41,682 nt of DNA from an uncultured Bacilli bacterium (GCA_947626015.1 CANQQK010000002.1:1-41682); one strand, 5' to 3'. Shown: positions 10,617 to 14,533, counted from the first letter of the stretch. Numbers and translations: made by a program. The notes: generated from the letters alone by a model not told the origin.

Positions 10617-11003
10617 TTATTTGCTATTTTTAACTTGTCTGATAGAAGATTGGGAATTAATACTATATCGACTATCAGCTTGTTTACTATGATCTAGAAC
10701 AGCTAATAAAGCTTGATAATACATTAGATTATTATTTTTCCAATTAAGGATAAAATTGTCCAATTCTTCCATAATCATTAAACCAGCACGGTTTAACGAA
10801 TAAGCATTACCAGTATTTAAATATCCTCTTAAACGACCTATATGTGAATATAGGAGATTTAAATCGGATGTTAGATTGTGAAGATTAGTATTATGAGCTT
10901 GTAAATAATACAATGCATTTCTATATTTTACAAAGATTGTATTATTAGTACGAACCTTAAAATATCCTTGGGGTTCTTTATAAAATGATAAATACTTTCC
11001 CAT
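10617..11003 (-). CDS. Hypothetical 128-aa helical protein
   Basis: AGGAGCG SD overlaps the end of the preceding gene, with a 4-nt gap. No motif recognised. It may be a chaperone or immunity partner, judged by position only. Confidence 0.5.
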   Translation of the reverse strand: MGKYLSFYKEPQGYFKVRTNNTIFVKYRNALYYLQAHNTNLHNLTSDLNLLYSHIGRLRGYLNTGNAYSLNRAGLMIMEELDNFILNWKNNNLMYYQALLAVLDHSKQADSRYSINSQSSIRQVKNSK

Positions 11004-11007
11004 ATTA

Positions 11008-11355
11008 TTAATCGCTCCTATTTCTAAGAGATTCTAAATAAGCACGACGTTCTTCACGTTCTCTTTCCTTCTCTTCTTCAATAGCTCGTTCTTCCTCTTC
11101 AACAAAAGCATCAACACTTTCACACCATTTATGTACTCTTCGCAATACTTCAATAAGTCCATTAGAATCATAAATACTTTTTGCTATTTTTTGATAATTA
11201 TCCGTACAAGCATAATCAGGTATATCATAAAAATTATCTTGTAGATATTTTAAATTATCGAGCATTTTCGTAGTTTCACGATTAAGACTTGTAAAATCCG
11301 TATTTAAGGAGCGCAATGATGATGCCGCACCCGTAACGTTTATTCTATCAGCCAT
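11008..11355 (-). CDS. Small helical protein, family B (WXG100/Lap-like candidate T7SS substrate) with Glu/Arg-rich tail
   Basis: 115 aa with SD GGAGTGGG. It shares LRSLNTDFTSL, LQDNFY and HKWCESVD motifs with the 108-aa protein at 11437-11763 and with the C-terminus of the 18695-21067 protein. Confidence 0.55.
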   Translation of the reverse strand: MADRINVTGAASSLRSLNTDFTSLNRETTKMLDNLKYLQDNFYDIPDYACTDNYQKIAKSIYDSNGLIEVLRRVHKWCESVDAFVEEEERAIEEEKEREREERRAYLESLRNRSD

Positions 11356-11436
11356 ATTAACCCACTCCAGTCTTAAGTATCATAAAATAAAAAGCCATCT
11401 TTGATGGCAATTTATAGTATATAAACAATCAAATTA

Positions 11437-11763
11437 TTAATCGTCGTATGGATTACCATTGCTTGCCTTATACTCTTTGTCTTGAACATATTGGTCTACA
11501 GCAGAGCACCAATCATGTGCACCTTTAATAGCAGGATATAATCCTTTTTCTTCTCCTACACCAATATTTTTTCTACATTCTTCATAGATAAGAGTACTAT
11601 CTTTATCAGCAGGCGAATAGAAATTATCTTGTAGATTAATTAAATCTTGAACCATATTATTAACGCTTTGCACTAAAGTTGAAAAAGTATCATTCAAACT
11701 TTGTAATTGTGCAGCAGCTTTTTTTGAGTCTAATGAAAATGACTCATTAGATATACTTGCCAT
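11437..11763 (-). CDS. Small helical protein, family B (WXG100/Lap-like candidate T7SS substrate)
   Basis: 108 aa with SD AAAGGAAG. Predicted helix-loop-helix of about 100 aa carrying LQDNFYSPADKDSTLIYEECRKNIGVGEEKGLYPAIKGAHDWCSAVDQYVQDK. This stretch is nearly identical to aa 735-787 of the 799-aa ORF. Confidence 0.6.
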   Translation of the reverse strand: MASISNESFSLDSKKAAAQLQSLNDTFSTLVQSVNNMVQDLINLQDNFYSPADKDSTLIYEECRKNIGVGEEKGLYPAIKGAHDWCSAVDQYVQDKEYKASNGNPYDD

Positions 11764-11788
11764 TTAATATCTTCCTTTCTATGTTAAA

Positions 11789-12199
11789 TTAACGTCCAAC
11801 TTTTAAAATACTTTCTCTAATATAATTAGCATAGTTAAGCGCAGTGCTTCCAAACCAAGCATCTGATTCTGCATTAGCATCTAATCTATTAGCAACTGAA
11901 GTAAATAACTTAGTCATATTATCTTGAATAGCTTTAACTGAGTCATTTAAAGCATTAGTAATTGATTGAGTTTGACTTCTGTAATCTTCAGAATCAATTG
12001 AATTTTTTAAATCATTGATTGCATTAATAAGATCATTTACTCCTGTTTTAATTTTGTTCATGTCAGCATTTAGTTCAGTAACATTCTTTCTTGCAGGGAA
12101 ATAAAAAATGAAATATTTAGTATAACTCTTATTAACATAGAAAGAACTACATGGTGGACAGCTAGAATTTAGCCATTTGTTAGAATAACTACTTGCCAT
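11789..12199 (-). CDS. Small protein, family A (stand-alone copy of the N-domain of the SleB-like protein)
   Basis: The ORF track starts at TTG 12217. ATG at 12199 (MASSYSNKW...) has SD AAAGGAG 8 nt upstream, giving 136 aa. It aligns with the N-terminus of 13549-14520 (SIDSEDYR/SLDSDDYR, LFTSVANR/LFTAVVNR, SDAWFG/SDDWFS, YANYI/YASYI). Confidence 0.55.
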   Translation of the reverse strand: MASSYSNKWLNSSCPPCSSFYVNKSYTKYFIFYFPARKNVTELNADMNKIKTGVNDLINAINDLKNSIDSEDYRSQTQSITNALNDSVKAIQDNMTKLFTSVANRLDANAESDAWFGSTALNYANYIRESILKVGR

Positions 12200-12296
12200 T
12201 TTAAAAACTCCTTTCAAATTTGAGGATTTTCTCTATCCTTAGTTTAATTATAATATAAGCATTTTTATAAATCAATAATTAATAAATTCGTTTACA

Positions 12297-13487
12297 CTAT
12301 TTTTTGATGTCGTTAAATTTCGTTTTACGTCCCTTTTTATTGGCAGTTTTTAGAGAGCTTTCATTTTTAGGTTCAGCACTACCACCAACGCCCATCATCT
12401 TTTCATATTCTGGGATGCCATCACCACCAGCAAACTTCAAATCTTCAGTTATTGGTTGCATAAAACCATGAGCATGACGAAGTTCATCGGTTAATGGCTC
12501 TTCATCGCCACCGATTTTCATTAAATCGGCTAGAGGAATAGCATCGCCGCCTACTTTTTCAAGGCTTGAAAATGATGGAGATGATCCACCGATACGCATA
12601 AGTCTTTCAGGAGTGATTTCTTTCTCATCTTTTCTTGAGATTCTTTCACTTCGAGGTGCTGCACCACCACCGGCACGTCTTAATCTTTCGCTAATAGGTT
12701 CAGCATCCCCACCAGCATGTCTAGCCTCATCAGATATAGGTTCAGCGTCGCCACCGATCATCTTTAAGTCTTCTAGAGGAATAGCATTACCTCCAGCATG
12801 TTTAAGTTCTTCGGTTAAAGGTTGAGCATCTCCGCCAGCATAACGATATTTTTCCTCAAGAGGTTTTGCGTCACCACCAGCATTTTTAAGTTCTTCTGGA
12901 CCTACAGCTCCACCACCGGCAGTATAGATTGAGTAGCCACTATGTCTACCTTTTTCATCATGAGAGCGACATCCACCACCAATTCCTGAAAGAATTAATT
13001 CATCATCAGTAGCTTTGATATCATAATTTCCTTTTTCATTGCTTTCATATTCAACCTTACGTTTTGGTTCTTTAGGAGATGCATCGCTACCAGAGAATAA
13101 TTCGAAAGAACTAATTATTTCTTCTGTAATGGCATTACTTCTAACACCCTTACATAATTCATCAAGATTGATATTGGTAAAGTCTTTAGAACGAATCTCT
13201 AATTCAAAACTATCACTTTTACCATTTATAGCTGCCATTTCTACTACTGAATTTTCAGCACGATCCATTACTTTCTTTAATTTTTGACTATAGTATTGAT
13301 AAAGAATCTTGCTCATAATAGCATCTTTTTTAAGTAATGCTAAAGCTTCATATTCAGCTACCGTTGATTGTTCATCAATCGTTTTTTCTGCTTCGACGGC
13401 TTTTTCTTCCAGCCTTTCATAATTATTTTTTAGTTTGGAAACCACTTGTTCCAAAACTTCATTTACTTTATTAATCTTCTCAATCAT
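12297..13487 (-). CDS. Coiled-coil N-domain protein with ~13 tandem AGGDAxPLxxxLxx repeats
   Basis: 396 aa with SD GAAGGG. The N-terminal ~130 aa are helical and charged. Residues 189-376 form a 13-14-aa repeat (AGGDAKPLEEKYRY, AGGDAQPLTEELKH, AGGNAIPLEDLKMI, GGDAEPISDEARH and so on). The C-terminus is a basic tail. Confidence 0.6.
   Translation of the reverse strand: MIEKINKVNEVLEQVVSKLKNNYERLEEKAVEAEKTIDEQSTVAEYEALALLKKDAIMSKILYQYYSQKLKKVMDRAENSVVEMAAINGKSDSFELEIRSKDFTNINLDELCKGVRSNAITEEIISSFELFSGSDASPKEPKRKVEYESNEKGNYDIKATDDELILSGIGGGCRSHDEKGRHSGYSIYTAGGGAVGPEELKNAGGDAKPLEEKYRYAGGDAQPLTEELKHAGGNAIPLEDLKMIGGDAEPISDEARHAGGDAEPISERLRRAGGGAAPRSERISRKDEKEITPERLMRIGGSSPSFSSLEKVGGDAIPLADLMKIGGDEEPLTDELRHAHGFMQPITEDLKFAGGDGIPEYEKMMGVGGSAEPKNESSLKTANKKGRKTKFNDIKK
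12360..12923 (-). repeat. Coding tandem repeat, period 39-42 nt (AGGDAxP motif)
   Basis: Read from the translation: about 13 degenerate units. On the plus strand it shows as recurring ccaccagc/ccaccgat blocks. Confidence 0.7.
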
Positions 13488-13548
13488 AACAATACCCTTC
13501 TATTCTAAGAATAATTATAACAAAATAATATTTTGTTGTAAACCTAAA

Positions 13549-14325
13549 TTATTTATAACGATTACCGGAGGAAGTAATCATATTAGAGCTAAATCCACTA
13601 GAACTATTTGATCTAAAACTTAAGTAATCATGATTTCTAGTACCATTTAAGGCATCCATAACTGCTTCCCTTACGGTATCGGGAGCACTTGATCCTAAAA
13701 AGGATTTATAAGAGCCGGATTGATAAACCGAAAATTGCCCAGGGGCAGTGGCTTGTTTAACAGGGTTAGCACCACCACATGATGCCCAATTGGGTTCTTC
13801 ACAACGATTGAGAATAGTTGAGACGACCGCTAAGGCATCGTCATAGCTCTTATCCGATTCCGCTGATACGATAGCGGTTAAAATATCTAAATCATCATTG
13901 GATAATTCATATGTTGGATTATCCGTGGTAACCACAAAGCCACTTTCGGGTTTGCTTTGATATTTACTAATATCGATGGTGCTAGATTCATCTGATAACG
14001 TTTCGATTGGAGATACACTTTCAACACTATCTTTAGAATATTCCACAGGGGTTGGAGTACTACCTCCACTGCCAGTTTCCGGATTACTTGCGGTATTCGT
14101 TTTTACTTTGGGTCTTTCATACTTTTTACCTAAGATGGCCGTTGTGATATATGATGCATAAAGAGCAGCCACATCGCTAAACCAATCATCGGAAGCAATC
14201 GATTCATTCATTCGATTAACGACCGCCGTAAATAAACTGGTGAAATTAGCATCCAAATTACTCACAGCTTCATCTAGGAGCTTTACAACTTCATTAGATC
14301 GTTCACGATAATCATCGGAATCCAA
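13549..14325 (-). CDS. SleB/Hydrolase_2-type cell-wall hydrolase domain fused to family A helical N-domain (minimal ORF; homology continues upstream to 14520 across an in-frame TAA)
   Basis: The C-terminal domain (nt 13591-13905) reads LDILTAIVSAESDKSYDDALAVVSTILNRCEEPNW...APGQFSVYQSG, matching the SleB-family pattern (AE catalytic Glu, ILNR, GQFS). No signal peptide is present. A Ser/Thr/Pro linker joins it to an N-domain paralogous to 11789-12199. The track start is TTG. Confidence 0.7.
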   Translation of the reverse strand: MDSDDYRERSNEVVKLLDEAVSNLDANFTSLFTAVVNRMNESIASDDWFSDVAALYASYITTAILGKKYERPKVKTNTASNPETGSGGSTPTPVEYSKDSVESVSPIETLSDESSTIDISKYQSKPESGFVVTTDNPTYELSNDDLDILTAIVSAESDKSYDDALAVVSTILNRCEEPNWASCGGANPVKQATAPGQFSVYQSGSYKSFLGSSAPDTVREAVMDALNGTRNHDYLSFRSNSSSGFSSNMITSSGNRYK

Positions 14326-14533
14326 AGAACTCTTGATAGTTATAATACCTTCTTGTAGTTTTGAAATATATTTTTTTACATCATGCCAATGATGATTTAA
14401 TTTACTAACCCTATTCTTAGTATTATGGTAATGAATATAATAGGATTCATAACTATAATTAACAATAAATTAATCAAACTTTAGGTTATCACTTAACCAC
14501 TGACTGACATATTTCCTCATACATTACTCCCAT

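Follow-up and report, generated by a model that had tools for sequence, protein, structure and literature searches.

Two orphan families of small helical proteins beside essC in an uncultured Bacilli bacterium as probable divergent type VII secretion modules

Beside essC, the ATPase gene of a secretion system of type VII (T7SS), a 41,682-nt stretch of DNA from an uncultured gut-type Bacilli bacterium (GCA_947626015.1 CANQQK010000002.1:1-41682; this whole stretch is called the window) carries a closely spaced set of minus-strand genes for small proteins, most of which fall into two families, here named A and B, that also occur as domains of larger proteins. In our preferred interpretation, to which we give a confidence somewhat above even, a non-canonical T7SS built around EssC uses A and B as modules for targeting and partnering that are specific to this lineage. 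They would thus be orphan, probably extremely divergent T7SS substrate or partner modules, including a candidate non-lipase family of the "reverse" kind. An earlier interpretation made from the DNA alone (the sequence-only reading) had proposed T7SS substrates or adaptors at this place, which is supported as far as computation allows, and the coordinates that it gave for the open reading frames (ORFs) proved correct, on the minus strand, in the window ORF check (Table 1).

T7SS substrates are mostly found through their WXG100, LXG and Lap signatures, and systems that have drifted past those models go missed. The locus is a compact example of this, with two orphan helical modules, one placed ahead of cargo and the other only at C-termini, and with wall-directed cargo devoid of signal peptides. 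If the interpretation is true, the range of accepted T7SS targeting signals would become broader, a non-lipase family of "reverse" substrates would be added, and cell-wall enzymes with housekeeping or antagonistic functions would seem to be among the exports of some T7SSs.

Free and fused copies of families A and B

Family B was described in the sequence-only reading as two small proteins (B108 and B115) plus the C-terminus of a 790-aa protein, and BLASTP reproduces this grouping with E values from 2e-11 to 8e-51. B108 is 70% identical to residues 697-797 of the 799-aa form of the large ORF (E 8e-51) and 37% identical to B115 over 78 aa (E 2e-15), B115 and the 799-aa C-terminus being 30% identical (E 2e-11). 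All motifs previously quoted for the two families are present, except that the 799-aa C-terminus has LQGMNATYTTI in place of L[QR]SLN. The second half of B108 is nearly invariant, and the tail SNGNPYDD that follows its last helix is conserved among B108-type orthologues. At the DNA level, B108 and the 790-aa gene are 83-93% identical in the 3' half or 3' end and 53-60% identical in the 5' half. The 790/799-aa gene lies 7 kb from the locus, between two tRNA clusters (3 and 10 tRNAs), and has 40-49% G+C versus ~30% for the genome, owing to its long coding sequence of Gly/Ser/Thr-rich low complexity.

Fused family B domains occupy the extreme C-terminus in all four independent fusions, namely the window 790-aa protein, its 727-aa orthologue in the related locus L011, a 203-aa LysM-B protein in L012 (LysM 35 bits, cut-off 21) and a Thr/Pro-rich 329-aa protein in L015. 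In the last of these, the B domain and the free B encoded next to it hardly differ. The cargo ahead of B is either of Gly/Ser/Thr-rich low complexity or LysM, and gave no lipase match.

Family A comprises a free copy (A136, with the turn motifs DSEDYR and SDAWFG) and the head of a gene previously called SleB-like. BLASTP confirms this relationship, aligning 113 aa of A136 with the reading frame that runs from the upstream side into the SleB-like ORF (37% identity, E 3e-24). Searches of the whole window by tblastn with every member revealed no further copies of A or B, and the two families are unrelated to each other when compared by hhalign (probability 1.7%). A further small protein, p128, can be aligned by hhalign along its whole length to the profile of family A (114 columns, E 8.9e-5, probability 60%) and keeps its position in all lineages; it may be a distant third member of the A type.

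Regarding the SleB-like gene, its A-type head stands, but the gene is not intact here, and the domain label is below cut-off. The latter derives from a sub-threshold Hydrolase_2 match (25 bits, cut-off 27), which recurs with E about 1e-4 in at least eight diverged relatives. The frame is interrupted by an in-frame TAA at codon 17, which is why the longest intact ORF starts only at TTG 14325, midway through the A domain. The same TAA, together with a second nonsense codon (window position 13960, TAT to TAG), is present in L021, from an independently assembled metagenome sample; since the stop is shared, the gene is read as a decaying pseudogene in this species and not as an assembly error. Intact orthologues of 382 aa (L001) and 507 aa (L008) exist in related species.

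Among relatives, the A domain is combined with no fewer than five different regions on its C-terminal side. It heads proteins with a Hydrolase_2-like C-domain (P0016, P0023 and the 382-aa protein of L001), is internal between a LysM domain with Thr/Gln-rich linker and a Hydrolase_2-like domain (P0017 and the 507-aa protein of L008), and precedes either a Gly/Ala-rich hydrophobic domain (P0015, P0018) or unassigned domains (P0019, the 351-aa protein of L001, P0024, P0025). The C-terminal domains of P0019, P0025 and P0015 gave no matches in the PDB. P0023 and P0025 have their first ~100 residues in common and unrelated C-termini, and this combination of a common head with divergent tails is characteristic of a polymorphic-effector architecture. 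Separately, tandem arrays of two or three effectors, most of them Hydrolase_2-like and with a common but different N-terminal head, are found in the more distant lineages L015 (981-2830) and L018 (1080-3967). Assignment of these heads to family A was rejected (hhalign probability 2%), although free A and B adjoin the arrays, and they may represent a third family of head domains.

Hydrophobic or signal-like segments were absent from A136, B108, B115, p128, the 396-aa repeat protein of the locus, the SleB-like frame and the 790-aa protein, in agreement with the lack of signal peptides noted before. The peptidoglycan on which LysM and Hydrolase_2 domains act lies beyond the membrane; wall-acting proteins without a signal peptide need a non-Sec export route.

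These architectures also bear on whether the small proteins might be immunity or antitoxin partners of the A-headed enzymes instead of export partners, as could be expected of small cytoplasmic proteins encoded beside putative effectors. This is judged very improbable, considering that (i) B is itself the C-terminal part of other large proteins, (ii) the set formed by A, B, B115 and p128 is constant while the effectors vary or decay, and (iii) immunity to a peptidoglycan hydrolase would have to be extracytoplasmic, whereas these proteins show no signal or membrane segment.

Linkage to essC, distribution and rates of change

The adjacency of the small proteins to EssC stands. The ATPase matches TIGR03928 (T7_EssCb_Firm) with 947 bits for a cut-off of 778.4, in addition to its FHA and FtsK_SpoIIIE domains. 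On these profile matches it is a bona fide T7SS ATPase of the Firmicutes type. In the window and in L001, L005, L008, L012, L015 and L018, the free B gene comes right after free A, at a distance of about 18-26 nt, and the A-B pair adjoins essC and the gene for the small protein p86 in every contig long enough to show it. In the close relatives L001-L008 the gene order beside essC is the same, even with a 781-aa Peptidase_C11 gene inserted. Across four diverged lineages the pair stays beside essC, also where order and strand have changed, essC being on the opposite strand and within a different gene order in L012, L015 and L019. The distant family A members P0020, P0022 and P0026 are 26-43% identical to A136, and essC and the p86 gene are there on the opposite strand, within a different gene order; the 101-106-aa neighbours of such distant A genes belong to family B according to profile comparison (probabilities 97% and 99.7%). 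Co-occurrence with essC is thus observed in every locus in which it can be judged, distant rearranged lineages included.

Relatives are very few. Word-indexed searches of 5.8 billion proteins returned 6 and 3-8 of them, and an exhaustive hidden Markov model (HMM) search of 1.84 billion representative proteins with the family A profile gave 20 matches, including free and fused copies. For family B, a pattern scan of 185,579 GTDB species pointed to one species, a metagenome-assembled genome, and a metagenome scan with a narrower family B alignment found nothing. On these searches, both families are confined to a tiny uncultured clade.

Such a narrow lineage (20 matches in the representative set, one GTDB species) is also what might be seen if the genes formed a cell-wall remodelling or surface module unrelated to secretion, with A and B serving autolysins and wall-binding proteins as coiled-coil domains for oligomerisation or tethering, and with the proximity to essC simply inherited within one clade. 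Wall-directed cargo, Hydrolase_2-like or LysM, and the lack of immunity genes concur with this alternative. Nonetheless, it is considered unlikely, because it leaves aside the non-Sec export that signal-peptide-less wall-acting proteins need, because linkage to essC and p86 survives inversion and reshuffling at 26-43% family A identity, and because B is WXG100-like in size and predicted hairpin shape.

Rates of change differ markedly between the ATPase and the small proteins. EssC is 87, 81 and 57% identical to its counterparts in L001, L008 and L015, respectively, and p86 is 98 and 66% identical to those in L001 and L015 (L008 not being in that comparison); in comparisons between species with 65-77% identity in A and B, p86 shows 98-99%. 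For the same three loci, identities amount to 75, 59 and 35% for A, 77, 70 and 30% for B108, 70, 59 and 22% for B115, and 55, 49 and 23% for p128. Slow change of EssC and p86 and fast change of A, B and p128 fit a conserved machine as opposed to fast-evolving substrates or adaptors.

This last observation is relevant to a different possibility, in which the unusual EssC machine would use A, B, B115 and p128 as structural or assembly subunits, or as chaperones in the cytoplasm, in place of EssA, EssB and EsaA and without exporting them. Their much faster evolution than that of EssC and p86 argues against it, as do the absence of any membrane segment from the four proteins and the swappable fusion of the same domains to cargo acting outside the cell (LysM, Hydrolase_2-like), which is typical of targeting domains. 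On the contrary, the presence of one copy of each per locus in a fixed order, the failure to detect canonical T7SSb membrane components in the window and the near invariance of the second half of B would be in line with machine subunits. Altogether, a role of this kind is given a low probability, and targeting and partner modules remain the preferred interpretation.

Predicted folds, known T7SS modules and a proposed arrangement

The helical folds anticipated from the sequence were reproduced in AlphaFold2 models of both A136 and B108. The B108 model, with a predicted local distance difference test (pLDDT) score of 76, is a WXG100-sized helical hairpin with helices at residues 13-48, 55-67 (short) and 75-101, and the A136 model (pLDDT 72.5) shows three helices after 32 initial residues that are of low confidence yet highly conserved. 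When compared with the PDB by Foldseek, the top match of the B108 model was the EsxA:EsxB dimer of Thermomonospora curvata (4lws_A; probability 0.99, TM 0.62/0.66), with a non-significant E value of 0.13, and EsxOP and CFP-10/ESAT-6 were also among the matches, and the EsxA proteins of G. thermodenitrificans and S. aureus. Family B has F-Y-S in the window, and F-Y-G in distant members, at the turn following helix 1, the site of W-x-G in WXG100 proteins; free family A copies have W-F-G, though between helix 2 and a short helix 3. Rather than a new fold, what is predicted for B has the look of a highly divergent WXG100 hairpin; the likeness is one of size and shape in a model, and homology is demonstrated for neither family.

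Helical targeting domains at the N-terminus or at the C-terminus ("reverse"), with small helical partners, are established for T7SSs (PMC11217815, PMC10730906, PMC13560087), and Garrett, Higginson and Palmer (2024, PMC11217815) note that, in all T7SS subtypes, candidate substrates are flanked by small partner genes related to WXG100. To date, the lipase families Tsl1 and Tsl2 are the only ones for which C-terminal helical targeting is documented (PMC10730906), and Tsl2 was termed "only the second" reverse-type family (PMC13560087).

Family B shares with WXG100 proteins of the EsxA-EsxB type (PF06013) a length of ~100 aa, a predicted helix-turn-helix hairpin with an aromatic-x-Gly/Ser turn, an unstructured conserved C-terminal tail, a location beside EssC and pairing with a second small helical gene, in addition to the best, though non-significant, fold match. 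Differences are the lack of HMM or profile-profile similarity, F-Y-S/G instead of W-x-G at the turn, an extra short helix in the loop, and its use as a C-terminal module of large proteins.

Family A, on its side, resembles the LXG/Lap arrangement of T7SSb (PF04740, DUF3130/DUF3958) in being a helical head without signal peptide that precedes interchangeable C-domains and is encoded with several small helical proteins beside EssC. Unlike LXG, it has no LXG/Lap match among the Pfam families listed for it, extends over about 135 aa instead of about 200 aa, starts with 30 conserved non-helical residues, and can be free-standing or internal (LysM, A, hydrolase). Its cargo is mostly peptidoglycan-hydrolase-like, with no visible immunity gene downstream.

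As for the reverse substrates Tsl1/TslA and Tsl2/TslM of S. aureus (PMC10730906, PMC13560087), the B fusions have the same disposition of N-terminal cargo and C-terminal helical module, with small helical partner genes nearby. Their cargo is, however, not a lipase, their module is WXG100-sized (~90 aa) and not LXG-like, and a nearly identical free copy of it is encoded in the locus.

Compared by components, the locus does not obviously fit T7SS subtypes b to j (PMC11217815). It resembles them in having an EssC/TsxC ATPase with FHA domains, a small conserved protein after it, and candidate substrates and helical proteins of small size in its surroundings. It differs in lacking, within the window, a Pfam-recognisable WXG100 TsxA, a recognisable TsxB (YukD), and detectable kinase, phosphatase, EssB and EsaA-type components, and in having membrane proteins with DUF5684/zinc-ribbon and HEIGH features, a repeat protein and a small divergently transcribed protein.

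The most economical reading of these analogies gives A an LXG-like role, as a cargo-carrying helical head, and B a WXG100-like or "reverse" role. Free A and free B, encoded back to back, would form a helical-bundle heteromer like EsxA/EsxB or an LXG-Lap complex, and the short conserved tail of B, at a free C-terminus, would dock on the EssC ATPase. The need of B for a free C-terminus points to its tail as the part that EssC would see, as for signals of the EsxB type. For export of cargo, one free partner would be replaced by its cargo-bearing version: A-domain proteins, with cell-wall hydrolase-like or other domains downstream of A, would pair with free B, and B-domain proteins, with LysM or long low-complexity regions upstream, would pair with free A. 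B115 and p128 might act as additional, Lap-like partners.

More tentatively, and with a confidence clearly short of even, the locus may belong to an undescribed T7SS subtype of an uncultured Bacilli clade in which an A:B helical pair replaces the WXG100 protein and either half serves as a portable export tag, A ahead of cargo (N-terminal or internal) and B only at a free C-terminus. Such a system would export the cell's own signal-peptide-less peptidoglycan hydrolases and its LysM or low-complexity surface proteins, and not classical toxin-immunity pairs. If so, the B fusions would constitute a third, non-lipase family of "reverse" T7SS substrates.

Several observations count against a T7SS role for A and B, many of them from the profile searches. 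In agreement with the remark of the sequence-only reading that the motifs fit neither WXG100 nor LXG, no HMM match at cut-off to either signature is among the matches listed. Eleven family B members gave no match to WXG100 (PF06013) at E up to 10, and the match of A136 to that family (E 0.14, 12.9 bits, cut-off 27.3) is within noise; across 21 family A members, T7SS-type matches at noise level were to WXG100 in three (E 0.06 or worse), to EspA_EspE in four and to a YwqH-like family in one. Neither LXG nor the Lap families are among the best 25 of the 117 Pfam families matched across these 21 members, and LXG is also absent from the full Pfam lists (E up to 0.1 or 1) of 11 of them. Comparison of the A and B profiles with a WXG100 alignment by hhalign gave probabilities of 2-5%, a weak negative given that this shallow alignment was made of five sequences (EsxA, EsxB, YukE, ESAT-6 and CFP-10).

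Structural comparison adds to these points. Foldseek places a WXG100-type dimer at the top for B, but its best E value is not significant, occludin and ESCRT-III hairpins score alike, and W-x-G is not present in the hairpin turn of family B; for A136 the matches are non-specific, all with E above 2, Esx and TelA-LXG entries appearing only at E above 4. On the favourable side, sequence and profile searches of A and B in Pfam, NCBIfam and the PDB gave only coiled-coil noise (haemagglutinin HA2, syntaxin, designed bundles), with no confident match to known families unrelated to secretion. None of the outcomes that would have refuted the sequence-only reading by its own account (such a match, absence of co-occurrence with essC, non-helical folds) was observed.

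At the level of the locus, scanned window ORFs gave no Pfam or NCBIfam match to EssB, EsaA, EssA or a recognisable YukD; judging from these ORFs, EssC appears to do without the membrane partners that are usual in T7SSb. Obvious immunity genes are not seen behind the effectors, which are succeeded by further effectors, the repeat protein or A/B genes, with no small variable gene placed after each of them. The window's own A-headed effector is, on its frame, a pseudogene. Finally, part of the synteny may reflect shared ancestry, since all loci come from one narrow clade.

Other genes and signals of the locus

Table 1. Positions of genes, domains and signals in the window, counted from its first nucleotide
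Feature	Position	Strand	Description	Basis
p86	3810-4070	minus	86 aa; start overlaps essC stop	position; no recognised family
EssC	4070-8701	minus	1543 aa; T7SS FtsK/SpoIIIE ATPase, N-terminal FHA domain	TIGR03928
Divergent ORF	8829-9155	plus	108 aa; divergent from essC	no family match
HEIGH membrane protein	9179-10564	minus	461 aa; single-pass, HEIGH motif	ORF and segment prediction
p128	10617-11003	minus	128 aa	hhalign to family A profile
B115	11008-11355	minus	115 aa; second family B paralogue, charged E/R-rich C-terminal extension	BLASTP
Terminator-like hairpin and T-run	11394-11408	minus	between B108 and B115	consensus match only
B108	11437-11763	minus	108 aa; free family B copy, starts 25 nt after family A gene	BLASTP paralogy
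A136	11789-12199	minus	136 aa from ATG 12199 (ORF extends to TTG 12217, 142 aa); free family A copy	BLASTP
Promoter-like site	12247-12275	minus	upstream of family A gene	consensus match only
Repeat protein	12297-13487	minus	396 aa; helical N-domain and degenerate AGGDAxP repeats	ORF
A-headed SleB/Hydrolase_2-like gene	13549-14520	minus	inactivated; Hydrolase_2-like domain near 3' end	reading frame from ATG 14520
Family A domain of SleB-like gene	about 14131-14520	minus		
In-frame TAA, codon 17 of SleB-like gene	14470-14472	minus		frame reading; same stop in L021
DUF5684 membrane protein	14534-15460	minus	308 aa; DUF5684 and C-terminal zinc ribbon	Pfam
Family B domain of 790-aa protein	about 18695-19006	minus	last ~100 residues	BLASTP
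790-aa protein	18695-21067	minus	Gly/Ser/Thr-rich, no signal peptide; 799-aa ORF to 21094	ORF

The genes beside essC had been described as an operon, of which the close packing on one strand holds; a single operon is unproven, promoter- and terminator-like sites being found inside the set. As the promoter-like site upstream of the family A gene and the hairpin after B108 bracket the A-B108 pair, this may form its own, possibly highly expressed transcription unit. Further promoter-like sites in the consensus scan precede the 396-aa repeat-protein gene and essC, and the locus may consist of several transcription units.

The position of p86 is one at which a protein of the YukD/EsaB kind could be expected, yet p86 bears no recognisable similarity to it. 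Comparison with YukD and EsaB by hhalign gave a probability of 1% (of these two sequences, the YukD one being an exact match to 2BPS), and phmmer against the PDB gave no support.

The 461-aa protein may be a component of the machine. A cytoplasmic head of ~75 residues is followed by a single membrane segment, at whose end stands a lipobox-like LSGC, and by an extracellular region with an HEIGH motif like that of zinc proteases. The protein is kept in the window, L001, L005, L008 and L015, not being seen on the short L012 and L018 contigs. In the window, L001/L002, L008, L012 and L017, the gene for the 308-aa DUF5684 protein lies at the border of the locus.

A counterpart of the 396-aa protein, with the same architecture of a conserved helical N-domain followed by degenerate repeats (about 13 of ~20 aa in the window), is present in every lineage examined. 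In the window, L001, L008 and L012 its gene immediately precedes A on the upstream side, whereas effector and B-type genes intervene in L017/L018. The counterparts in L012, L015/L017 and L018 have a similar helical N-domain, and their repeat units differ, AGSSTPEE being found in L012 and GSNVEGE in L015.

The small protein divergent from essC is conserved in the window, L001, L008 and L015, with the pattern TPEIMAQMGP...AAFKAKLTPEQ... and a C-terminal EQKGPIxFGRK. Finally, a threonyl-tRNA synthetase-like gene is present at 15521-17056 on the minus strand; it encodes only 511 aa, with matches to the class II core and the anticodon-binding domain and no TGS or editing match reported.

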